From NCBI RefSeq assembly GCF_006345805.1, contig NC_042998.1:93682001-93746000 (forward strand): 64,000 nt of DNA. Direction: 5' to 3'. Under the pieces are notes generated by a model. The model searched no databases and was not told where the DNA came from. It saw only the letters and a list, made by a program, of their open reading frames with translations. Positions 2,735 through 62,027 of this stretch are shown in pieces (position 1 is the first letter of the stretch; every line of letters starts with the position of its first letter). Source of the stretch: Octopus sinensis. Taxonomy: Eukaryota. The position numbers and the translations under genes were made by a program.

Positions 2735-3995
2735 TTACTCGCATTCGTATTTAAATAGCGCTCTGTGTGGCACAGATTCTTCAGCTTGTCCGGATTGGGG
2801 AGACATGTTGTACCAGAAAACTGCTTCCAGCGGCGAAATGTGCCCTCTTTCCGCTATGGCATTGAATGCCCGATGGTGCCTCTCTACGATTCCGCTACCA
2901 CTCGACCTATACGCTGCTTTGAACAAGCGATGCACTTTCCACCGAACGAAACGTCGCTCCGTTGTCCATTTGCAGTTCTTCCACGGGATCCTTCTCTAAA
3001 AATATCCCGTTCAAAATCTGCGCAATCTCGTCAGCAATGCCCGTTCTCAACTCCCTCCAAATGGCCAGCTGGCCCGGCTCGCAGTCGACCATGGAGAGAT
3101 ACATTCCCTGACGGTAGTGCGTCACATCCACAGCTAGTCTCTTCCAGTTGTGCTCCACCGAAAGGTTTCCTTGCTCATGCCCATACAGAGTAGGGTCAAT
3201 GGACTGACACCTGTCGCAGCTCCCGATTACTTTCCGGATGCTTCTCCTAGTGACGTCAGCATCAATGATCTTCGCGAGATACAGGGTCCTGTTCACACCC
3301 AAATGATGCATAGCGTGCAGTCTCTTCAGTTCGGAGTCATCCAACCGACACGCCACAGCTATCCCTTTCTTTACCTCCTCCAGTTCCGCCACCAACGCCC
3401 TTTTCACCCTGGTCAGTGCATCTGCCCTGTTTCTCTCCGAAGGCACGAAAACTACGTTCAGCTTCAGTCCAAACTCGGCAATCAATTCTCCTAGAACTCC
3501 TAGACGGCAGTTCACCAACATCTCCGCGGTACCTTTCGTCCGAAATCTCCTCTCACCGGTAATCACCGATCCTACCCAGTCAAGCACTGCGGCCGAATCC
3601 GTCAGGATTTCGATTGAGCGCAGACTCCATTTCAGGGCCAAGTTAACCCCCTTCAGCACCGTGTCTGATTCGGCAACATTGATGTGGTTAAATTCGTCTG
3701 CTTTCCGAAGCCAAACCGCGTCCTTCTCCTCAGCGCCTTCGATCTCCAATACAACCCCTATCGCTATACTGCTAGCATCACACCAGGCGATCCCGCATTC
3801 CGTCTTGGGCACATACCAGTTCCCCCTGACCGGGTCTTCCGCTCTCGTCCTCTCTAGGATTTCCTGCATCATCGTCACCGTCCCTTCTCCCATCTTGTCG
3901 CCCCAACTCTCCCCCTCCGCTCGTCTCTTGGTGTAACTGCACGCTGTACGCAGCCATCCAGCGATCGGATAGTGACCGACCAACTTCCCACACAC
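2735..3995 (-). pseudogene. RNase H + integrase of the LTR element (frameshifted)
   Basis: RNase H motifs WCDASS, HINVAE, TDS and NRADALTR. HHCC (HAMHHLG...CDRC). DDE core AVDVTH, MDNGATF and GIVERHHR, the last in a shifted frame. Confidence 0.85.
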
Positions 3996-4101
3996 CGAGA
4001 ACAGCTCTCTCCTGCTGACGCTGAAACTCAGCTCTGGGATTCAGAGATGGCACTCCACCCACTACCTCCTCCTCCCACGGAACAAGGCCTCCTTCCTCGA
4101 T

Positions 4102-4641
4102 CTACCTCTCTACCTTGTCTTCGAACTCGACCCTGGCGTGACCTTTCAGGGTACGCTGGTAGCAGCTCACCCTGTTCTTCAACATCGGGGGCTCGTCTTT
4201 ACATCGCCACTCTATCGTCCACCACTGACCATCGAACGCCGCCTGAAAATCCTTGTCCTCAATGGTGTATGCGGCGCAGTCCCTCGCGGGGCTCTGCTTT
4301 CTCCAGCGATCCTGACTCACAGCGCACCACGCCCCCACGCTTCCGAACGTGACCTCATCACCTACAATACTGACATCACCGAGGCGGTTGATGGTGTCCA
4401 TCCCCATCACTACATCAACCCCGTCTATCACGCGTTCAACCACAATTACCTGCAGCCTTAGCGTCGCGCCTCGCACCACTATCTCTACATTGCTGCTGCC
4501 TTTGCATCGGATTTCGCTGCCGTCGACCGCCCGGACGCTACTTGTCCCCTTCCATTTCTTCGCCACCTTGAAGTCACGAGGGTGGTCGTGCAACCCGTAT
4601 CCACGAGGGTCTACGTCGTCAGGGAACCCACTTACGAACAC
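4102..4641 (-). pseudogene. Aspartic protease / pre-RT fragment of the LTR element
   Basis: VRAVDGSEIRCKG...VDVVMGMDTI resembles the C-terminal half of a retropepsin. No catalytic DTG motif is present. Confidence 0.6.
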
Positions 4642-4713
4642 TAGTCGCGCTGCTCTGTCCAGGCCTTCTCCCGTAAACCCAGCCAGCGTGGCCAGCCTAC
4701 GTACCTCCGTCGC

Positions 4714-5019
4714 TTATTCATCCACCTGCTCTCCTGTCCATCTAATTGTACCCAGCTTAACAAAGGCTGTATATTCACACTCGGTGTAAGCATCTCTCAG
4801 ACGTTGCTCAGTCTTCTCCTCACTCAGTCGTTCTTCTTCGTCCATCTCGAGATATAGAGTCAACGCGCTCCCTTCCAAATATAGTGCCATAAGGTTCGCC
4901 ATGTCGCTAATGCCTTGCAATCTCACCACAAGCCTGAGTTTACGCATCCAGGCCACTATATCGCCCTCACCATTAAATGGTCTGATAACGTCGCTGGCGA
5001 TCCTGATTCTAGCTGCCAT
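4714..5019 (-). pseudogene. gag N-terminal fragment of the LTR element
   Basis: IRPFNGEGDIVAWMRKLRLV...LYLEGSALTLY is gag-like. Starts just after the 5' LTR and has a premature stop. Confidence 0.7.
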
Positions 5020-9905: not shown

Positions 9906-12068
9906 TTTTCTATTACCCAAGCTTCTTTATCTGCTCTCTCCTTTTCATGGGACTGATGCAGACTTTTCTCAATTTCCATTAGCATTCTCTCGAGCCGAGA
10001 CTTCTCACCACTTTTGGTGTGCTTGCTCAGGCGATTCGCAATCCTTGTCCGTCGTCTCATAAGAATCTTCCTTTCTCTAGGGATCCTGTTTTTGTTTTTG
10101 TGTGTGCTGGCCCTGCACACTGGGACATATTTGTCACATATGGCTTGTATTATGGACATGAAGTGTTTGTGTTTCATGTTTATGTCCGGTGTGGAGAGAC
10201 ATTTAGGCCAATTCCTGTTTGAGGATCTCTTTCTCAATCAACTACCAGTTTGCTTTATGAAAGTTTAGGTTGGAGAGATGGTGGATGCTTCGTATAGGCT
10301 GTGTGTCTACGGGGACTTTTGTTCCATACATAGACAGCTCTATTATGTTGTGATCCGAGATCATTGTCGGCATCACATTAACATTATGGATAATATCCAT
10401 ATTGTTTGTGAAGCAGAGATCCAGTATATTATCTGCCCTTGTTGGTTGCAGAACTATTTGCTCCATGAAAGAGGCATTTGTGAGATGGAGCAGGGACTCT
10501 GCCTGTGCCTGCTGATGGTGTGTCATCCCTGGGGGCATCTGCCCCCCAGGCCATTCCACATTGGGGAGGTTAAAGTCACCCATGAAGAATACACGGTTGT
10601 GTTGTTCAAGGTTGGTGAGGACTTCTCCTATTTTTGTTAGGCAGTCTTCAAACATGCCTGAGTGATTTGGGGCATCTGGTGGGCGATATGTAGTGCATAT
10701 GACGATATTCAGTTGTCTTATGTGTACAATATGAGTTTCACACACTGAGTTTGAATATGACAACAGGACCTGGGGCGTGAGGTCATATCGGATGTACATT
10801 GCAACTCCACCATGGCTCCTCCCTTTTCTATCTGTGCGTATGACTGCATATTGCGGCATGTGTATTTCTGCATCACCTATATCGGGTTCAAGATGCGTTT
10901 CTGTGAGTGCCATGCATATAGCTTGATTGCATGTCACAAGGTCTCTCAGGAATGAGATTTTCCTTTTACAGTTTCCGCGCAGCAGCCCTCCTACGTACAG
11001 TAGAAATATTTTTGTGGTGTGTGTGTTGGTGTTGGTGTCTGTGGTGGCCATCCTGCATCTGTCGGTGGTGGCCTTATGTGGTGGCTCCTCCCTTTTCTAT
11101 CTGTGCGTATGACTGCATATTGCGGCATGTGTATTTCTGCATCACCTATATCGGGTTCAAGATGCGTTTCTGTGAGTGCCATGCATATAGCTTGATTGCA
11201 TGTCACAAGGTCTCTCAGGAATGAGATTTTCCTTTTACAGTTTCCGCGCAGCAGCCCTCCTACGTACAGTAGAAATATTTTTGTGATGTGTGTGTTGGTG
11301 TTGGTGTCTGTGGTGGCCATCCTGCATCTGTCGGTGGTGGCCTTATGTGGTGGTAGTTCCAGCTTTGTGCTTGTAGCCAGGTCAGCTGCTGAACAATTTT
11401 TTGTGCCATGCACAAAAAAGATTGCTGTTCAGCTGCTGCCCTTCTCACATCTGGGTGAAGCTGGCCATTTGTTGGGTTACCGCGCACCACATCCGCATAT
11501 CGTCTTTCAGGAGTGGTCAGTGCGCTTTTTTTCCTTCTTTTATATTTTTCTTTTTCTTTTTCTTTTTGCTCTCCCCAAGGGAGGGACCCCTGTCTCGCGT
11601 CCGTGCGGTTTTGGTAGGGCCTCTGATGTGCAAAGCGACAGTTCGCACCTTCGACGCCGTAACAGCAGTCCCCCCTTCAGGTAGAATTTGCAGATGTTTC
11701 TTTCTTTGCCCTTATAGTTCTTGCTGGGGTCCTTTTGTTTTCTCTGGACAGGGTTTCTTTTAGCTTTGATTTTCTTGCCTTTTACCTCCTGTTTCCCATC
11801 AATTTTAGGGTGCTTTTCTTTTCTTGCAGTCAACGCACCTCTTTGGTCTTCAGTTGTGGTGTTGGGAGCTGGACATGTGTCATTGTTTCCTTGTGTTCTA
11901 GGTTTCTCGGTTTTGTTTTTTGTTGGGTCCTGGATGTTTTCTTCATCCTTTTGGCTTTCCCTGGTGCCGTCACCTCCTAGGATGATGTCCAGAGTGTCTA
12001 CATGTTGCCTGATTAGAGCGTATGAACGGATAAATTCTCGTTTCTTTCGCTCTATCTGGGCGGTGGTT
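9906..12068 (-). mobile_element. CR1/L2-group LINE fragment: end of ORF1 plus APE endonuclease, no RT
   Basis: ORF1 with a CCCH-like CKFYLKG motif. APE motifs ALTETHL, RTDRKGRSHGGVAMY, YRPP, MGDFNLP, PTRADNILDL and SDHN. Both ends abut (TA)-rich tracts. Confidence 0.88.
10242..11051 (-). pseudogene. LINE ORF2 apurinic-like endonuclease domain
   Basis: 269-aa ORF containing the canonical APE motifs. It continues in 9906-10237 after a stop. Confidence 0.88.
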
Positions 12069-34062: not shown

Positions 34063-34540
34063 CGATAAATTAAGTTGATAAATTAAGTCCCAGTTACGCA
34101 TTGGAGTCGATATAATCGACTTAATCCGTTTGTCTGTCCTTGTTTGTCACTTCTGTGTTTAGCCCCTTGTGGGTAGTAAAGAAATAGGTATTTCGTCTGC
34201 CGTTACGTTGTGAGTTCAAATTCCGCCGAAGTCGACTTTGCTTTTCATCCTCTCGGGGTCGATTAAATAAGTACCAATTACGCACTGGGGTCGATATAAT
34301 CGACTTAATCCGTTTGTCTGTCCTTGTTTGTCCACTCTATGTTTAGCCCCTTGTGGGTAGTAAAGAAATAGGTATTTCGTCTGCCGTTACGTTGTGAGTT
34401 CAAATTCCGCCGAAGTCGACTTTGCCTCTCATCCTTTCAGGTTCGATAAATTAAGTACTAGTTGCATACTGAGGTCGATGTAATCGACTGGCTCCCTCCC
34501 CCAAAATTTTGGGCTTTGTGCCTAAAGTAGAAAAGAATTT
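34063..34540 (+). mobile_element. Multimeric SINE family A (internal ~181-bp tandem unit)
   Basis: The core plus tail is repeated, with the junction gaaata|ggtatttcgtc seen twice. Confidence 0.85.
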
Positions 34541-38223: not shown

Positions 38224-40150
38224 TCATTTGTAAGAGTAAAAAGTATGTTTCTGCCAGTGCTTACATTTATAGGATTTCTCTATGAGTGTGTTTACAAGGG
38301 GAACCTTAAAGAAGAGGATATGGAAGAGCTCAGAGTTGCAAATATTACAAAATCTCCTGCCCTTATCAAAAGGGAAGGATATAGACAGTATGAACCAATC
38401 TAACTTGAAATCTAAATTAATGTCTTTAAGACGCCAAACTAATTTACTTAGCCCTGTACTATGTCGTTTTTTACTATTCCTGAATGTTGAATAATGGTTT
38501 GAAATTCTCTTGGATAACTGGGAAGAGGACGCTCCTATATAGAAGAAGACATTGGTACCAGAGGAGATTCTACACTGGTAAATAGAATTCTCGATCTTAG
38601 AATTACTAGACAAAAATTTAATTCTGTTGGGGTTGTCCTCCGAGATCGAAACGAAGTTTTTATTGCTATGATTGTTGTTACTATTATTATTAGCGTTAGC
38701 AACTACACTATTCGTATTATTATTAGTATTATTAATGGTAATACAATCAGTAATTTCTCCGTTATTGTTATCACTATCAACATTACCATTGTTATTAACA
38801 CGACTGATACTATTATTAATATTATCATTGTTAACACTATCGCTACTACCATTGCTATTACTATTAATACTATTCCTATTAGTATGACTGTATGATGGGT
38901 TGGAAATAGTAAGATTTATGTTGGAACTCCCAGGTGAAGAATCTCTATTTATCAGCTTGGTATTGTGAGAAGATATAATTTGTGAAAGATTTCTAGTGTT
39001 AGAGAAAGCGATTTTGACTATGTGGGAATTGATAATAGAATAATATCTAGAATTTCTGGGAAAGTTCCTAGCGACGGCTTCACGGAACTGTAAGGGAAGG
39101 TTCGATTTAATTTGTTTACCGAAAGGTATTACGAACCAGATATGGCTCTTAGTGGCCTTTGACTTGTACGTAGAGTTATTTGTGAAAGTAAGGGGAAAAT
39201 TACTGGGTTGAAAATTTGGAGTTGAACGGCGCTTACCTCCCCTGGTCCGTAAAGAATTTATATTTTGCATAGTGTTGCTGGCACTACTAGAATTAGAACT
39301 ATTATTCCTATTACAAGTAACTATTCTATCTGGAGAAGCAGATGTTGGTTTAGAATGAGCTGAATCTATGTATGACACTTTGTCCTTATAGCCGGCTTTT
39401 GCCAAGGCGGCGTTATAAAAGCCTGCCTTTTGGTTAAAGATGTCAACATTGGCAGATAATTTAGAAAGTCTCAAAGATATGTTTTTGACTAAATTATCGG
39501 TAACGGGCTTGGCATGATTACTGTAAAGGCTAATATACTTAAGATTTGTGGAGGGTTTATGGTAAAGGAAGTATGAGTTATTTTGTAAATTGAGGGTAAT
39601 GTCTAAGAAGTTGGCTTTAGTTAACTCATCGTCAAAAACGATGTGCAAGCCCATTCTACCAAAAAACCTAACTAACCTATTTTTAACCTTCTGTATTTTT
39701 TGGTTCGAGACATTTTGGAGGTAAAGCAGACAATCGTCGCGATAAAGACCTCCACAGATGTCCGGGAATTGGTCGGCCATTTCATAAAGAATATAAATTC
39801 CGACCAAATCGGCTATCTGGGCGCTGTCTGTACTTCCCATTAGTACATCGAACGCATTAGGGGTATCTCTGCGGACCCACAACTTGCTATCGAACTGGAT
39901 GAAGGATTTCCTAGCAGTCAATATCACATTAATTTCTTCCCTGGAGAGGCCTGCCTTATTGTGTGCGTGCCATAGGGCCTTATTAAGTATAATAGGGTTG
40001 ATTGAAGAATAGAAACTAGATATATCGAATTGGATAAATTTAGTGCTGGCCTTATCAGTAATAGAAGTGAACCAATCTACGACTTGAACAGAATTGGACC
40101 ATAAGCTAAGTTTTAATTTATTAATTAATATAGGGATATACTTATCTAAT
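38224..40150 (-). CDS. Penelope RT + GIY-YIG endonuclease (N-terminally truncated, frame open)
   Basis: QFDISSFYSSI, DVLMGS, GLYRDDC, NFLDITL, YHKP...SNH, and SIYQC...FYIG...RISNH. The frame stays open upstream of the track ORF start at 39927. Confidence 0.88.
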
Positions 40151-43923: not shown

Positions 43924-44185
43924 TGTGTGTTATTTTATGTTAAGCTCAGGAGCGGTGCCCGCGAGGAAGGTTTACTAAATAGATACATTTCCTATTGCAA
44001 AGCCGAAACATATGTATTAAATGATTTCGAAATCAAAACTTCATTTTATTGCTACTAAATTCACTAACAAGACCTGCAGCAGGAATGAACTCGAAACCAC
44101 GTGGTTGTGAAGCAAATTGTTTTATCCATGCTTGCGTCTCGTATGGAAAAATATGTGTATGGCTGTGTGGTAAGTAGCTTCTTAC

Positions 44186-46175
44186 TGCGCATGTGCGAGT
44201 CAGTGTTGTGTTTGGCACTGAAGCGGTGAAGATGTGCTTTTGAAGCCGTCTTGAATTGAAAACTTTGGAAGCCCCATGTAAGGTAAGATTCTGTTTTCTG
44301 GGTCCAGTGGGAGTTTTTGTTGAGAATTGTTTTTTACATGCAGGAAGTCCTACTGGATTCAGAATTCTGATTCTGTCGACATGTGGCAAATATATTTTTC
44401 TCGCTGAGAAAATTTTTTGGGGCGTATCCGTCTTCGAATTGTGAGAATTGTATTGTGCTGTGAAGAACTACCAATTTTACACCAATTTTTGTGGAAGTTG
44501 TGCGATCCTGGTTCGATTTAGGCCGGGAGTACCAAATGGCCAAAAGGATTTTGCTGTGTTATTGACTTTCTTTTTAACTTTATTTGACTTTCTTTTAAAC
44601 TTTATTTGACTCTCTCCTTTTTTCATTGTGACTTTCTTCGGATTTCCTTTTCTTCTCGTTTTTTAGTTTTATTCTAAATACATTTATTTAAAAAAAAAAA
44701 ACATGGCAACAAAAGAAACCACCGCTTTGGAATGGGAGGTCATCCCACCCAAGCAGTGGATTGAAAGTCTTGAGAAGAGGACGGTGGTCCTACGAACCTA
44801 TTCTAGGTCGCGTGGAGCCATTGCCCTCTTCGACAGGAATACTATAGAGAAAGAGTTGGGGGACCACCTGCCAACTATAAAATTTATTTCTCGGGGGACT
44901 AAATTTGCAACGGTGTGGTTGCTGTTTGGTACCCCCGAGGAAGCTAGCAGATTTGCTAGCGAGCCACTGGAGGGAGAGGAAATTTTGTTCCTCCCCTCGT
45001 ATTGTGGCAGAAAAGTAAAAAGAGCCTGGGTGTGTGGGCTGCCCCCGGGCACGGAGGCGGAATGGATCGAGAAGACCATCCGGCGAGGCCTGGGGGATAG
45101 CGGACCCAGACTACTGAGTGTGAAAATGGCTCCCGCGGTCGCCTGGGAGGGGTCAAAGGCAACTTTGACCCTGTGGACACCGGTGGCCGTGGGAGAAATG
45201 AAATTCCCGGACTTCCTGAGAATGGCTGGACACAGGTACCCGGTGATACTCGAGGGTCGCCCCCCCCCCAAGTGTCACCTGTGCCTGAAGCCCGGACATA
45301 TCAGGAAGAATTGTCCCGGGGGCCGTGGTGGTGCCCCGGAGCAGAAAGGGGAAAAGGCGCCCGCCGCCCCCTCATTGGAGGGGGAGACGGTGGAAGTCGT
45401 GGAGGAGGTTGCCTCCACGAAAAGAAAGAGACAGGCGAGCAACAATGGTTGCCCGCCAAAGAACGCTCAGGGGGCGGAGGGGGATAGCAATCCCCCGTGT
45501 CTGGTGACGGAGTCCCCTGGGTCAGCAGTCTCCCCCAAAAGAAGGAGGAGAAAAAGGAGAGGTCGGACGACTGACGTTTCTGTGTCGCCGACGGAGCCGC
45601 GGGTGGGATGTGTGCCACCCGCGGACAAGGCTCCGCCAGTAGGAAGTGTGCCACTGACGGAGCAGTGTGAGGTCCCTTCCTGTGAAGAGGAGATGCTTCT
45701 CCTCCTTTACCACAAGGGAGAGGAGGTGGAAAGATTTTTGAATGGCTTGGGTGACCGAGAACGTAAGGGCACGGTCGGCTCAAGGAGTCCGTTATGGCCT
45801 CCGCGGGTAGCTGCGGAAAAAGTAACGGAAGATACTTTGTCAAGGGTCGCAGAGACCTTTGAAAGGAAAGATTTTACTTTTCTCTTTGCAGGCCCCGACT
45901 TGTCGTCGCAGAGTTGTCTGCAGGCGGCAAGACAATTTGCTTCGGGGAGCTGACGAGGAGAATTGTTGAACATTTTTTATGTAATTTGAATCATTGTGAA
46001 CATTTTATTAAATGTATTTATTGAAACATTGTTTTAGAGAAGCGAAAGTCGGCGGGCGCTTTCGACTTCTCCCATCACCATCTTCATCCACCACCACCAT
46101 CATCCATTAATGTCCTTGTCCAGCCCGTAGCTACTACTCTGTGTGCTGCCCTAGTGGCAAATTATATAAAATAAA
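44186..46175 (+). mobile_element. ORF1-only Tx1/L1-like retroelement, unit 1
   Basis: ~520-bp 5' UTR, a single ORF and a ~220-bp 3' UTR ending in AATAAA. Flanked by aagtagcttcttac and aagtagcttccatac. Confidence 0.8.
44703..45953 (+). CDS. Intact 416-aa gag/ORF1-like protein (RRM-like N-terminal half plus CCHC zinc knuckle)
   Basis: Good Kozak context (aaacATGg). CHLCLKPGHIRKNC knuckle preceded by YPVILEGRPP, an arrangement typical of Tx1/ZCCHC3-like ORF1. Basic KRRRRKRR patch. Confidence 0.82.
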   Translation: MATKETTALEWEVIPPKQWIESLEKRTVVLRTYSRSRGAIALFDRNTIEKELGDHLPTIKFISRGTKFATVWLLFGTPEEASRFASEPLEGEEILFLPSYCGRKVKRAWVCGLPPGTEAEWIEKTIRRGLGDSGPRLLSVKMAPAVAWEGSKATLTLWTPVAVGEMKFPDFLRMAGHRYPVILEGRPPPKCHLCLKPGHIRKNCPGGRGGAPEQKGEKAPAAPSLEGETVEVVEEVASTKRKRQASNNGCPPKNAQGAEGDSNPPCLVTESPGSAVSPKRRRRKRRGRTTDVSVSPTEPRVGCVPPADKAPPVGSVPLTEQCEVPSCEEEMLLLLYHKGEEVERFLNGLGDRERKGTVGSRSPLWPPRVAAEKVTEDTLSRVAETFERKDFTFLFAGPDLSSQSCLQAARQFASGS

Positions 46176-46807
46176 GTAGCTTCCATACGCACATGCGCAG
46201 TTAGTCGACTTCTTCCAGCTTTACCAGAGTGGACATGAGCTTGTTAGCTCCATCTAATTACAAGAAAAAAGAACAAAAACAGAGGAGTTCGTCGCGGTAG
46301 GTAGTTTTGTTTTATCTGAGCTGGGCGTAATTTCTTATATTGTAATTTTTTGTTAATAAATTTTGCCCAGCTTTGGGACAATTTCGCCTGCTCTCGACGA
46401 CTGCTGTTTTTGTATATTGTGGATTTATTGTGGAAAAAAAAAGGGGGACGTATCCTCGCTCGAATGATTAGAACCTATACAGTTGCTGATGAAGTTACCG
46501 TTGGCTGTAGCCAGTATTGTGTTTGGATTTATTGGATTTATTTTACCAATTACCAGAAAAAAAGTTTCATACCAAGGACCCTATCCACATTTGGCCGGGA
46601 GTACTAGTTGGCCAGGAAATAGGATTTTTGCTGAATGAATTGTTTTTCTTTTTTCCGTCTCGTTTTCCTGATTCTTTCTTTCTTTTTGAACTGTTTATTT
46701 ACTTTTTGGACTTTGTTTTAATTTTTGACTGTTTCTGTTAACTTTTTGTGTACCTTTTTTTGGACTTTTTTCTTTGAACTTAGAACTTTCAAGATTTCTT
46801 TTTGCAC

Positions 46808-48067
46808 ATGGCAAAAATAAACGGTGCCGCTGTTTTGGAGTGGGAAGTTGTCCCTCCCAAACAGTGTATTAAAGATCTTGAGAAGAGGACGGTGGTGCTA
46901 CGGACCTATTCTAAGTCGCATGGTGCCATCGCCCTATTCGACAAGATTGTGATAGAGAAAGAGTTGGCAGACTAGCTGCCAACTATAAAATTTATTTCAT
47001 GGGGGACCAAATTTGCAACGGTCTGGTTGCTGTTTGGTACCCTCGAGGAAGCTGGCAGATTTGCCAGCGAGCCTCTTGAGGGGCAAGAAATTTTGTTCCT
47101 CCCCACTTATTGTGGGAGGAGGGTGATAAAAGCCTGGGTATGTGGGCTACCCTCGAGCACAGAAGCAGGATGGATTGGTGATACCATCCGGCAGGGCCTG
47201 GGGGAGAAGGAGACCAGGCTTTTAAATGTGAGAATGATGCCAGCGGTCGACTGGGAGGGGTCAAAAGCAATTTTGACCGTATGGACCCCATCGGCCGCAG
47301 GCGAAATGGTACTCCCGGACTTCCTAAAAATGGCTGGCTGAAGGTATCCGGTGATACTTGACGGTCTCTCCCCACAAGTGTCACTCGTGCCTGGAGCCAG
47401 GTCACATTAGGAAGAACTGCCCCCGGGGCCGTAACATCGCCCAGGCACAGGAAAGTAAGGTGCCCACCCCACCCCCTGTGGCAGAGGAGACGGCGGAAGT
47501 CATGAAGGAAGTTGCCTCCACGAAGAGAAAAAGAAAGGTGAGCAACAATGGTTGCTCACCAAAAAATGGGCAGCGGCACAGGAGGCGGGGGAATAGCGCC
47601 CCCCGTGCCTGCCGACGTATGTCCCTGCTCCCGTAGCCTCCAAAAGAAAGAGGAAAAAGAGGAGCAGAGGACAATCGGCGGATGTCCCTGTGTCGCCGAC
47701 TGAACTACCGGTGGTATGTGTGCCACCAGCAGAAAAGGCTCCGTCAGTGGGAAATGTGCCACTGACGGAGCAGTTTGAGGCTCCTTCCCGTCAGGAGGAT
47801 GAGGAGGAATTTGTCCTCCTTTATCACGAGGGAGGGCGTGTGGGAGAAGTTTTGGACGGCCTGGGCGACCGAGACCGTAGGTACTTGGATTGCATAGGCA
47901 GTCCAATATGACCTCCGCAGGTGTCTGCGGTGGTAATAGAACATAAAATTCTATCAAGGGTCATAGCGACCTTTGACAAGAAAGAGTTTGCTTTCCTCTT
48001 CACGGGACCCGACTTGTCGGCGCAGAGTTGTCTGCAGGTGGCAAGTCAACTTGCTTGGGGGTTCTGA
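46808..48067 (+). pseudogene. Pseudogenised paralogue of the 416-aa ORF1
   Basis: Colinear with 44703-45953. Stops at 46973 and 47339, plus frameshifts. CHSCLEPGHIRKNC is retained. Confidence 0.88.
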
Positions 48068-48182
48068 TGAGGAGGATTGACCTTATTTGTATTGATATTT
48101 CTGAATTTTTGCATTAAAAAAATTGTATTCGAGGGCTTGTTGGTCGGTGGGCGCCGACATCCCTCTCATCTTTATCATTATA

Positions 48183-48577
48183 CTAGCAGTATCGCCCGGC
48201 GTTGTTCGGGTTTGTTTCGACACTTTAGAATTGAAATTGTTTAAAAGTAAAAATTTTGCATTATGTAGCTTGTTATCTCCTTTAAGTGAACATTTTTCTG
48301 GTTGAAATACACCTAAAAATGGCGACACAGCAGTCAAAAAATAGTAAAAGATAGGAGTTTTCATAGAAAAAAAAGCACCTTTTTGATGTTAATAATTTTT
48401 GGTGTTAACATGGTCCGATTTGAATTTTTTCTTCTACGGAAGGCAGAGCAAACCTTCTTCTATCATATTCTCAATTTTGGTCAACTTGCGCCGCAGGGCC
48501 TCTGAGGAGATAGTGTTACTTGAAGGCTACCAAACCTCCCATACACAGACAACTTCAGCTTTATATATATAGTGAGA
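48183..48577 (-). mobile_element. Non-autonomous Helitron
   Basis: Minus strand reads A|TCtcactatatatataaag ... ccgaacaacgccgggcgatactgCTAG|T. Confidence 0.85.
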
Positions 48578-48694
48578 TTTTCATTTCATCTCATTTTGTC
48601 TACATCCAGCCCACAAGCTTCTTACTCTGTGTAATGCCCTTGTGGCAAATTATATGAAATAAAGTAACTTGCTTACCAAGTAGCTTGCTACCTC

Positions 48695-48945
48695 ATTGCG
48701 CATGTGCGAATTAGAGTTGTGTTTGACACCGAAGATGTAAGACATGCTTTTGAAGCCGTCTTAAATTGAAAACATTTGAAACTCAGCTGTAAGGTAAGAC
48801 TTTTTTCTGTCTAGTGGGGACCTGTTCTCTGTCGCAATTATTTTTACAAACAAGAAGTCCTCATCGGATTCTAGTCTGCCTGAGGCTGAGGGAAAAAAAT
48901 TTTCTCACTTGATTGTGAAAATTGTTGAAAAGAAACACAATTTCA
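48695..48945 (+). mobile_element. ORF1-only-family element, unit 3 (5' UTR only)
   Basis: tgcgcatgtgcga...tgcttttgaagccgtctt...tgtaaggtaaga matches 44186-44300. Confidence 0.75.
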
Positions 48946-49307
48946 TTGTCGTCCGTGGGCTGGCTCGTAAATTCACGAGCCACTTCTGGGGAGTCAAACA
49001 GCAACCACACGGTTGCGTATTTGACCCCCGAGTGATAAACTTAATCGCTGGCTTAAGTTAAGGAAAAAGAAGGAAGAGGAAAAAAAGGAAGGAGAGAAAA
49101 AAATTAACAGTTCAGTAAAGAGTATTTTTTAAATAAAAGAAAGATGAAGAGAGAGCAACAGTTCAAAACACAGCAAAGGCCACTCGGTACTCCAGGCCAA
49201 AATTTTAACGCAATTGTAAAACAGTTAAAAAAGCATTCCAATTTTCTTCTCATAGGTACTCCTTGACAGAAACAATATTGTTGAAACACTATTTTCAAAC
49301 AAAATTT

Positions 49308-49598
49308 TGCGGGCCGACCAAAGCTTTGTGTGTGGATTTGCTAGACGGAAACTGAAAAAAGCCCGTCGTATATATGTATGTGTGTGTATATGTTTGTGTG
49401 TCTGTGTTTGTCACCCCAACATCGCTTGGCAACCGATGGTGGTGTGTTTACGTCCCCATAACTTAGCAGTTCGGCAAAACAGACCGATAGAATAAGTACT
49501 ACGCTCCCAAAGAATAAATTCTGAGGTCGATTTGCTCGACTAAAGGCGGTGCTTCACCATGGCTGCAGTCAAATGTCTGAAACAAGTAAATGGGTAAA
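49308..49598 (+). mobile_element. SINE family B body (probable 3' part of the SINE whose head is at 44161-44185)
   Basis: gggccgaccaaagctttgtg...cagtcaaatgtctgaaacaagtaaa. Confidence 0.8.
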
Positions 49599-60722: not shown

Positions 60723-62027
60723 GTGTCCTGGAATAAACCTAGAAAATCTCTGTTATGGAATACTTTCATAAACACCAATTCAAGGAATACTGGTGGAATA
60801 TCCTGACGACTGGGATCTTCCACAGAAATAGTGATGTTGACAGGTACTACCTAAGAAGAAATGAAGGTGGTAGAGGCCTGAGATCAGTGCAGATGGCCTT
60901 CGAATGCCCTATGGTATCATTCAGGCAGCACCTGCTAAACAACAGCAACAAAAATAAACATATTAATGCAGTGCCGAAAAGTGAAGTGAGCAACGTTGTA
61001 CGAGTAGGCAGTGGACTCCTCAATAAACACTCTCTTCCTGATGATCTCCTATACAGCCCCAAAACAGCTGGGCTCTCTTACCTTAGAGAAGACCTGGATG
61101 GAAAGCATTTAGTATACAAAAAAATAAAAAAAGACCATGCATGGGTATGTTTCCCGGAAGCTTCAAGAAGACAGTAGAATTGACACGAAATGCAGCCTCT
61201 CTTGGACACAAGACCACAACATCATATAACACTTTGAAGGTTATGCATTTGCAATCCAGGAACAGGAGATTGTCACAAGGTACCTGGTGAACAAGAGAGA
61301 CAGAGGCGCTCTTGCAGTCCCAAAGTGCAACCACATGTGTAGGCTATGTCATGTTTCTGTGGAAGACATTACGCATGTGATTAGCAGCTGTCCTAAAATG
61401 TCACCACCTCCTTATGTGGCACGATGTTGTCGCTGAAACAATTTACAATGCCATCCGCAAAAAAGACTGTCCAGAAATAAACTTAGAAAACCCCTCTGTT
61501 AAGGAATGCATTCATAAGCACCAATTCAAGGAATACTGATGGAATATTCCCATCAAAACTTCTGTCAAACGTAAGCATAATAGGCCAGATATTGTTGTTT
61601 GGGACAAGGGGCAAAGGTATGTACCATCATAGAAGTTAGTTGCCCTGCACAAATAAATGTCCCGTTGAAAATCAAAGAAAAAGAGGACATCTATGGACAA
61701 CTGCTTCGAAACCTCCAGCTTCTATATCCAGACTATGAATTCATATTCATACCGTTATTAATTGGAGCACTAGGTTTTGTTAGCAAATGCTTAAAGGAGA
61801 ATCTGGATAAACTGGGATTTTCAGAACTAGAAAACGACCGACTAATTCCAACATTACAAGGGAAATCACTGAGTGGAACAGTAAAAATATGCAAGACTAT
61901 TCTCAAGTTCCAAATGTGAATTTATTCCAAATGTTTACTACATCCCAAAGATGGAGCTTTGTATCTTTGTTGGAAACCGGCTCCCTCCTTAGTGGAAGAT
62001 TTCTAATAATTAAAAAGTAGGACAGAC
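60723..62027 (+). mobile_element. R4/Dong-clade LINE, 5'-truncated, inserted in (TACA)n
   Basis: FHRNSDVDRYYLRRNEGGRGL, FEGYAFAIQEQEI, CRLC...HVISSC, RHD, HNRPDIVVWD and IIEVSCP. (TACA)n on both sides. Confidence 0.88.

Follow-up and report, generated by a model that had tools for sequence, protein, structure and literature searches.

Octopus sinensis carries retroelements that encode only ORF1, insert at one position in a SINE, and end in a set of covarying RNA helices, of which a terminal stem-loop is common to an autonomous partner that uses the same site, and an upstream hairpin, P1, occurs solely in the ORF1-only elements, where we prefer to read it as half of a predicted loop-tail pseudoknot. 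We propose that this structured 3' end is a handle that captures the ORF2 protein (ORF2p) of the L1/Tx1-type partner, and consider this a reasonably probable account; the structures are well supported, and the functions are what we infer from them.

ORF1-only elements and an autonomous partner at one SINE site

The window, a 64,000-nt stretch of contig NC_042998.1, holds, between 44172 and ~48870, two full units arranged head to tail, plus a stub of a third. The features are as follows.

44161..44171, + strand: 5' remnant of the host SINE (head probably tRNA-derived), ending at the insertion site; the same left flank is present in most ORF1-hit loci
44172..46173, + strand: unit 1, a full-length ORF1-only element of lineage 1, starting with the target-like AAGTAGCTT
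44703..45953, + strand: unit 1 ORF1, intact, 416 aa, one CCHC knuckle (a single weak match); 30% identity over 197 aa to the autonomous partner ORF1
46037..46071, + strand: P1 hairpin of unit 1, 12 bp with one bulge and a 10-nt loop at 46049-46058
46052..46057, + strand: loop strand GCGGGC of the predicted pseudoknot, unit 1
46123..46128, + strand: tail strand GCCCGT of the predicted pseudoknot, within the conserved GTCCAGCCCGY motif, unit 1
46129..46135, + strand: anti-target motif AGCTACT of unit 1, the reverse complement of 46175-46181
46147..46159, + strand: terminal stem-loop NGCC-N5-GGCN of unit 1, common to the autonomous partner
46170..46175, + strand: AATAAA of unit 1, made of the element's last four bases and the first AA of the target duplication
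46174..46182, + strand: target-duplication core between units 1 and 2
46174..48661, + strand: unit 2, a decayed ORF1-only copy from a different subfamily, B; its ORF1 spans ~46808-48068 and has 7 in-frame stops
48131..48165, + strand: unit 2 P1 hairpin with a B-type stem; its loop strand, GTGGGC, is at 48147-48152
48181..48580, no strand assigned: unrelated dispersed repeat of ~400 bp, ends approximate, inserted in the unit 2 linker (40 scored matches at 90-93%; uninterrupted copies compared)
48609..48614, + strand: tail strand GCCCAC of unit 2, complementing its own loop GTGGGC
48615..48622, + strand: anti-target motif AAGCTTCT of unit 2, A-type; the junction at 48662 is AAGTAACTT, a mismatch and an exception
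48635..48647, + strand: terminal stem-loop of unit 2
48678..48871, + strand: third unit, 5' remnant only, with 76% identity to the unit 1 5' UTR
~48931-49052: inverted ORF1 piece after the third-unit remnant; the SINE body resumes at ~49311

The ~400-bp repeat splits the unit 2 hairpin from the rest of its tail. AlphaFold prediction of the ORF1 protein gave a mean pLDDT of 37, and the model was set aside.

At least 104 ORF1 matches are present in the genome, and, judged by their flanks, the insertions share a single position within the head of an abundant SINE, GTGTGGT^AAG(T/A)AGCTTGC. From this head, the SINE is likely tRNA-derived; a scan of the window with ARAGORN reported no tRNA. Among copies that can be seen at both ends, target duplications measure 6-16 bp, one of which (L323) carries a private mutation in both duplicates, and 5' truncation is common, leaving as little as ~50 nt. 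Duplications and 5' truncation are marks left by target-primed reverse transcription (TPRT), and a crossover origin of the duplications, as by a tyrosine-recombinase-like enzyme, is ruled out by the truncations and by the variable duplication length. Poly(A) is absent at the element junctions, and the AATAAA is completed by the target's AA. The element spans ~2 kb between duplications, and ORF2 hits fall in a separate class. ORF1 is intact in many copies, and ORF1 N-terminal halves and 3' UTR types have been freely swapped between subfamilies. The target site would be regenerated on insertion, such that later copies could stack, as in this window.

A search with the junction pattern returned 1,272 exact genome matches vs 2 for the control, and the first 100 of these places yielded 99 distinct ends: 49 of ORF1-only elements, 20 with ORF2, and 30 truncated. 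A motif search gave ~1,500 hits genome-wide. Four of the truncated ends have the partner tail, giving 24 partner-type ends; approximately five of the 99 match by chance and are unrelated. In the search pattern the first 11 target bases were set, with the SINE body beyond left free; 86/99 junctions run on into that body, and 24/24 partner ends lie at the same SINE position as the ORF1-only elements. One locus (L182) is a nearly full-length partner with a CCHC-containing ORF1 and an ORF2 with APE and RT domains, and another (L181) provides the zf-RVT end of ORF2. The partner ORF1 matches that of unit 1 (30% identity, E 3e-19), and the best PDB match of its ORF2 is L1 ORF2p. Both in its domains (ORF1 CCHC; ORF2 APE, RT and C-terminal zinc finger; L1-like RT) and in its target-sequence preference, the partner fits the Tx1 clade.

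Helices of the 3' end

The sequence-only reading had described an upstream hairpin in each unit, with a conserved central 12-mer and stems that differ between units but still pair. Both hairpins are present (46037-46071 and 48131-48165) and fold well (z ~ -2.5 in each unit; out of 200 shuffles, 1 and 2 are equally stable). The conserved part is a 10-nt loop; the outermost two bases of the 12-mer form the closing pair, which itself covaries (G-C 48, A-U 23 of 77 copies). Alone, the 12-mer is not diagnostic: it has 1,056 genome matches vs 20 for the control, and 16 of the first 30 matches sit in an unrelated repeat.

Two copies alone are insufficient to show selection, and a deeper alignment was built. 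We gathered 155 anchored 3' ends, of which 148 have a recognisable loop and form 45 clusters; 81 representatives were chosen (up to four per cluster, with four mis-anchored clusters removed), and 77 were aligned using MAFFT with no structure fitting, omitting four large-indel copies (L006, L135, L229 and L284). RNAalifold recovers the inner P1 stem unaided, with 5 of 6 pairs doubly changed. In the 77 copies, 90.7% of cells in the named structure are paired, vs 80.6% in shuffled and 37-54% in slid controls. Because these controls ignore relatedness, we used a tree-aware, R-scape-like test (a G-test with APC, with a null from Fitch reconstructions in which substitutions are re-dealt along branches, 60 replicates). 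Over the proposed pairs in the 77 copies, E<0.05 is reached by four inner-stem P1 pairs (21:32, 19:34, 17:36 and 18:35), by 140:157 in the terminal helix and by 122:177 in the anti-target helix; over all 10,930 column pairs, none reaches E<0.05, the best being 0.16 and 0.26. Watson-Crick types switch independently 2-6 times per pair on the tree. P1 cells have G-U 67 times vs A-C 18 times, and therefore sense RNA, rather than DNA, is likely the paired strand. The majority states of the 12 clusters with three or more copies are paired in 60/60 anchored stem cells. The covariation thus bears out the pairing of the rewritten stems, and together with the G-U asymmetry and the majority states it upholds the earlier view of these as selected RNA structures. 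The top-scoring pair overall, 144:152 (U-A 42, C-G 29, six switches), lies inside the terminal loop, where it would close a 2-nt loop. Rfam covariance models (ribozymes, xrRNA and cis-elements) gave nothing near gathering threshold over the 3' UTRs, and hammerhead, pistol, twister and HDV cores, compared by eye, did not fit.

P1 is confined to the ORF1-only elements. Among the 49 ORF1-only ends, 43 match a P1 profile and 45 the tail-motif profile, whereas neither profile matches any of the 24 partner ends or the eight long partner loci, and the covariance-model scores of the partner (22-44 bits, the level of terminal-part-only matches) compare with 144 for unit 1. Three of the six ORF1-only ends lacking P1 led to two more lineages (below), and the other three are deletion copies. 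A GC-rich block after the partner ORF2 stop was considered as a P1 homologue and rejected, as it folds inconsistently; no complement of the full P1 loop was found in L182. Because P1 is missing from the partner, it cannot be the signal that ORF2p reads on its own RNA, and since the partner functions in its absence, P1 is dispensable for ORF2p.

The loop of P1 is instead complementary to the element's own tail. In lineage 1, the loop GCGGGC complements GCCCGC in the conserved GTCCAGCCCGC motif ~60 nt downstream, and in subfamily B, GUGGGC is matched by GCCCAC in 23/23 copies. In lineage 2, a stem of 13-14 bp carries the loop GUGUGGGG, with the complement CCCCACAU ~130 nt on, and in lineage 3, a stem of 15 bp carries the loop AGGUGGGG, with the complement CCCCACCU ~65 nt on; located with fuzzy patterns, which favour matches, these are 8/8 paired in 16 of 21 scored lineage 2 copies (23 extracted) and in 10 of 15 scored lineage 3 copies (17 extracted). 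In both of these lineages the whole 8-nt loop complements a motif at the equivalent tail position, after TGT. The loop-to-motif distance is thus 45-135 nt, and the pairings are 6, 8 and 8 bp in the three lineages, with differing sequences. The lineages are separate ORF1 clades with ORF1s only ~30% alike, and in an unrooted ORF1 tree lineage 3 is sister to the partner (96/88); four rows of that tree (L009, L347, L353 and L386) most likely belong to adjacent units of mixed arrays.

The duplex energies in lineages 2 and 3 are reached in 1-10 of 2000 shuffles, and single lineage 1 duplexes are unremarkable (matched by 50-1186 of 2000). With the lineages anchored on GGG:CCC, both sides differ at three flanking positions, two of them by transversion; loop and motif homology among lineages rests here on position and architecture, not on alignment. 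Loop (0.89) and motif (0.94) are the best-conserved blocks, compared with 0.53-0.63 for the stems, and 70/72 subfamily-majority pseudoknot cells are paired. Within lineage 1, none of the pseudoknot pairs is significant (E 0.7-0.8), and the lone fixed double change, C-G to U-A in subfamily B, has CpG sites on both sides. Two subfamilies have mismatches as majority states and yet have spread, c31 with C.U mid-pseudoknot and c23 with A.G at the end pair. Apparent G-A/C-T covariation at pair 27:113 was discarded as CpG decay (A-U 3, G-U 8, unpaired 9); loop pairing with GCGCCCGCC inside ORF1 was rejected, as only some subfamilies have it and unit 2 lacks it. We think that the P1 loop very probably pairs with the C-rich motif as an H-type pseudoknot, predicted from the complementarity in three lineages to lie upstream of the terminal stem.

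The second hairpin of the sequence-only reading, TGCC-CT(A/T)GT-GGCA immediately before AATAAA, is present in both units (46147-46159 and 48635-48647) and ends 10 nt before the AATAAA (46170 and 48658), although the final two A's belong to the duplicated target rather than to the element. In unit 1 it is thermodynamically weak alone (z -0.62), and its support comes from covariation and from sharing. All 24 partner 3' ends carry it, with 20-21 of 24 copies paired per position and the first pair variable (T-A 16, C-G 2, G-C 2); the 'term' profile score is inflated, the junction letters being the search pattern. A second SINE has ~55 nt of tail in common with the partner, including a GCCC/GGGY hairpin. 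A stem-loop common to LINE and passengers, with compensatory changes, is the pattern of stringent-type tails. Of the two hairpins once suggested as signals for a partner ORF2 in trans, and looked for in autonomous 3' UTRs, the terminal one fits (24/24 partner ends, and the second SINE), but P1 does not (0/24); since P1 is absent and the terminal hairpin present in the partner, only the latter can be a shared ORF2p signal. By analogy with stringent-type elements, we think it likely, with good confidence, that the terminal stem-loop is an ORF2p recognition site.

The earlier set lacked a third helix, one that joins an internal motif to the target. The MFE fold of unit 1 pairs AGCUAC with target-derived GUAGCU. 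Empty SINE sites among the loci have AAGTAGCTT (25) or AAGAAGCTT (10), and the internal motif reads GCTAC where the site is of the T type and GCTTC where it is of the A type in 85 + 40 = 125 of 129 informative ORF1-only copies (148 examined), in 23 + 15 of 40 clusters, and in 18 + 4 = 22 of 24 partner ends; unit 2 of the window, with an A-type motif, is an exception. The variable base is identical at both junctions in 45/47 copies and travels with a linked SINE variant, and therefore derives from the target; an element-encoded 3' junction base is ruled out on the same grounds. The base switches at least four times on the tree, and subfamilies at 5-7% divergence (overlapping in age, with small clusters understating divergence) hold opposite variants, so that age alone is insufficient to explain the pattern. 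Lineages 2 and 3 lack the anti-target motif, yet insert at the same site, and lineage 2 uses both variants (17 T and 11 A, partly clustered), a pattern that fits inheritance of the variant through a read-through tail and selection of the motif to pair with that tail. The motif-target match, read from sequence, thus implies a putative pairing with read-through target RNA.

Proposed capture of a partner ORF2 protein and its alternatives

We suggest that the transcript would run past the element, the AAUAAA being completed only by the target, and would carry ~15 nt of target sequence. The internal AAGCU(A/U)CU motif would hold this tail in a helix closing the terminal hairpin, the terminal stem-loop would be presented to the partner's ORF2p, and the released tail would anneal to the nicked bottom strand, from which the RNA would be copied. 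That read-through tails are held and then used in this way is probable in our view; tail annealing would explain both the junctions without poly(A) and the subfamilies that keep their parent's target variant. The pseudoknot, which occurs only in elements that need ORF2p in trans, may add a second binding surface beside the terminal stem, by analogy with the pseudoknot-hinge-stem and avian R2 protein, and might so strengthen binding that the passenger RNA can compete with that of the partner. In our view this is the likeliest role for the pseudoknot, though a tentative one at slightly below even odds.

The pseudoknot could instead be unrelated to ORF2p binding, and stabilise, export or aid translation of the ORF1-only mRNA, or block 5'-3' decay like a viral xrRNA. 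Its absence from the partner suits such a role, as does a pile-up of truncated-copy 5' ends at the foot of P1, where there are 16 exact 5' junctions (two of them one duplicated event) vs one before the tail motif. On manual reading, 23 distinct junctions near the loop comprise 16 within 4 nt of the first base of the stem, on A, B and D stems, together with four in the arm, two ~12 nt upstream and one unclear. However, the near-loop junction pattern reached only ~8-14 nt upstream and its reversed control had 29 matches, and a pile-up is equally expected from target microhomology or from cDNA snap-back after copying of the full stem. Nuclease stalling, snap-back and microhomology all predict it, and it shows only that the stem likely affects insertion. 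Moreover, a stable, promoterless 150-nt fragment would compete with full-length RNA and would be a doubtful object of selection, and Rfam returned no match. We consider a role in RNA stability or expression unlikely.

A bolder version of the capture model is that the motif and the read-through tail, bound to one another while the RNA is free, swap partners to pair with the top and the nicked bottom strands, forming a two-strand guide, with the passenger-only pseudoknot overriding ORF2p cis-preference and being kept or reinvented in three lineages. In the IS110 bridge RNA, the target-binding loop has two RNA segments that complement both strands of one target site. The likeness is confined to these paired segments and to this reading; IS110 uses a recombinase rather than TPRT, and the octopus match is 7-9 nt and missing in two lineages. 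Were it true, the target would be chosen partly by RNA and be reprogrammable, but we regard it as decidedly unlikely.

P1 or the pseudoknot could alternatively serve the element's own ORF1p in packaging or dimerisation, with loop-tail pairing possibly between two RNAs. ORF1 is indeed intact in many copies, and each of the three ORF1-only lineages found has the structure, but the partner, which also needs ORF1p packaging, lacks it, and a specific ORF1p-loop pairing is hard to reconcile with the free swapping of ORF1 N-terminal halves and 3' UTR types. We consider this reading highly improbable. That the stems are unselected, with template switching perfecting inverted repeats and with CpG decay and shared ancestry mimicking covariation, is barely credible: the loop and motif are CpG-rich, the all-against-all test has no significant pair and G-U excess is absent from the terminal (9:8) and anti-target (9:14) helices, but the G-U excess of P1 is strand-asymmetric, double changes include transversions (A-U to C-G and U-A to G-C), stems are rewritten while loops stay fixed, and the long-range complementarity recurs in three lineages with different letters.

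Related systems and significance

Among known systems, HAL1, Tx1-Mar/SINEU, stringent LINE tails and the R2 pseudoknot-hinge-stem come nearest, and in the available descriptions no one of them brings these features together. HAL1, the mammalian half-L1, is non-autonomous, encodes only ORF1p and has several independent origins (PMC5753468). The octopus elements are similar non-autonomous, ORF1p-only derivatives, with a LINE-derived ORF1, no ORF2, target duplications and 5' truncation; they work like HAL1 but are not members of it, since HAL1 proper descends from mammalian L1 and the sole ORF1 homologue found is an octopus protein. Unlike HAL1, they are site-specific in a SINE, form head-to-tail arrays with junctions lacking poly(A), and have a structured tail common to the partner and a covarying hairpin and predicted pseudoknot, which are unmentioned for HAL1 in the available text of PMC5753468. 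Stringent-type LINE/SINE 3' stem-loops, known also in a monocot L1 lineage, similarly have a terminal stem-loop with a variable but compensated stem, common to a LINE and its non-autonomous passengers, as described in the available part of Ohshima 2013 (PMC3747384); the octopus passenger differs in coding for a protein, in a closing helix that would need read-through target, and in its passenger-only upstream structure.

Tx1-Mar/SINEU of crocodilians, and Tx1L in Tx1D, involve Tx1-type elements (Kojima 2015, PMC4494074). As in the octopus, Tx1-Mar and its passenger use one target inside another transposon, with ~15-bp duplications and tandem insertions by site reuse, and target co-transcription is said there to strengthen specificity (PMC4494074, available text); in the octopus, however, the target is the head of a putative tRNA-SINE, the passenger encodes ORF1, and a tail structure is also in common. 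In A-clade R2 elements, the 3' UTR has a pseudoknot upstream of its terminal stem, and after the stem come nucleotides homologous to the target, which pair with the primer. The retrotransposon protein binds this structure, and the templates used include a few target nucleotides pairing with the primer (Thawani et al. 2025, PMC12180492, available text). The R2 structure is compact (~65 nt), lies in the autonomous RNA and is bound by an RLE-type protein, whereas in the octopus the linker of the predicted pseudoknot is 45-135 nt long, the autonomous partner's own 3' UTR lacks the structure (0/24 ends), and the enzyme is APE-type. In O. vulgaris, 13 L1-Tx1 families have been recently active according to the available portion of PMC13282606, the main text of which lacks the word 'target'. 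Our literature search returned no account of these elements' structure; Repbase, subscription papers or the repeat library of PMC13282606 might already list the families.

What is new here is the loop-tail complementarity in three lineages, a predicted pseudoknot, and an anti-target motif that tracks the T/A target variant. Capture of RT by non-autonomous RNA against LINE cis-preference is understood mainly for Alu, and a covarying RNA module present in passengers, absent in their partner and with natural compensatory variants makes the question of RT capture testable in an L1/Tx1 system. A putative 3' UTR/target helix that tracks a one-base change of the host SINE in both partner and passengers is genomic evidence for read-through RNA in APE-type site-specific insertion, and the role of such RNA matters for all-RNA insertion tools.

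Terminal loop and 12-mer

The strongest covarying pair in A2, the alignment of ORF1-only 3' ends, comprises columns 144 and 152 (window 46151:46154) and lies within the 5-nt loop (Y-N-N-R-U) of the terminal stem-loop; its formation would leave a 2-nt loop and a bulged U. The 12-mer at the centre of the upstream 3' UTR hairpin (P1) is also present in a dispersed repeat unrelated to the ORF1-only elements, at 16 of the first 30 genome loci matching it (L061-L090), and sits there within the repeat's own predicted hairpin, TGAATTTCGCTGCAGCC-GTCGGCGGGCGC-GAACTCA. This match is probably due to chance.

The partner's ORF2 end and shared tail

In the autonomous APE-RT partner, the ORF2 stop falls within a conserved CAG/GTAAGT (L154, L157, L159, L171, L225), a perfect match to the 5' splice-site consensus, and is followed by a conserved GC-rich block bounded by AAAGG...CCTT. 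The partner's ~55-nt tail is common to a second SINE (window 34079-34489, 5745 and 42348; many loci), which is arranged as tandem units. One variant of this SINE (L053, L074, L097, L125, L250) carries AATACCTAT immediately 5' of the tail, and this is the reverse complement of ATAGGTATT, the junction of that same variant; the other variants lack this complementarity.

Array structure, rearrangements and other remnants

The 5' UTRs of the ORF1-only units open with GCGCATGTGCG-like motifs (window 44187, 46188, 48698), which we take to be NRF1-like, and have a 5' splice-site-like AG/GTAAG ~100 nt in (44281, 46295, 48792); in other copies the opening motif is CTTCCGG or GACGTG. The unit 2 linker is interrupted at 48181-48580 by an abundant ~400-bp repeat, Helitron-like by resemblance only, whose first bases are ACTAGCAGTATCGCCCGGCG and whose other end is a TA run. 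Within 48662-49311 are a doubled short target (48662 and 48678), the stub of a third unit and a fragment of ORF1 in inverted orientation; the SINE is partly missing there. Both this arrangement and a head-to-head joint of two 3' tails at L211 resemble 5'-inversion products.

Further retroelement remnants were taken from the window's ORF list and labelled by eye from translation:

2907-5019, minus strand, retroelement remnant
10242-11320, minus strand, retroelement remnant
38224-39840, minus strand, retroelement remnant
60755-61177, plus strand, retroelement remnant

The types among them, as judged by eye, are LTR-type gag/protease/integrase-like pieces, an APE-like ORF, a Penelope-like RT ORF and an RTE-like piece.

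Mixed arrays at L009, L347, L353, L386, L330 and L362 stack more than one ORF1-only lineage and the autonomous partner at the same SINE site. Modules are shuffled between subfamilies, namely the UTRs at both ends and halves of the ORF.
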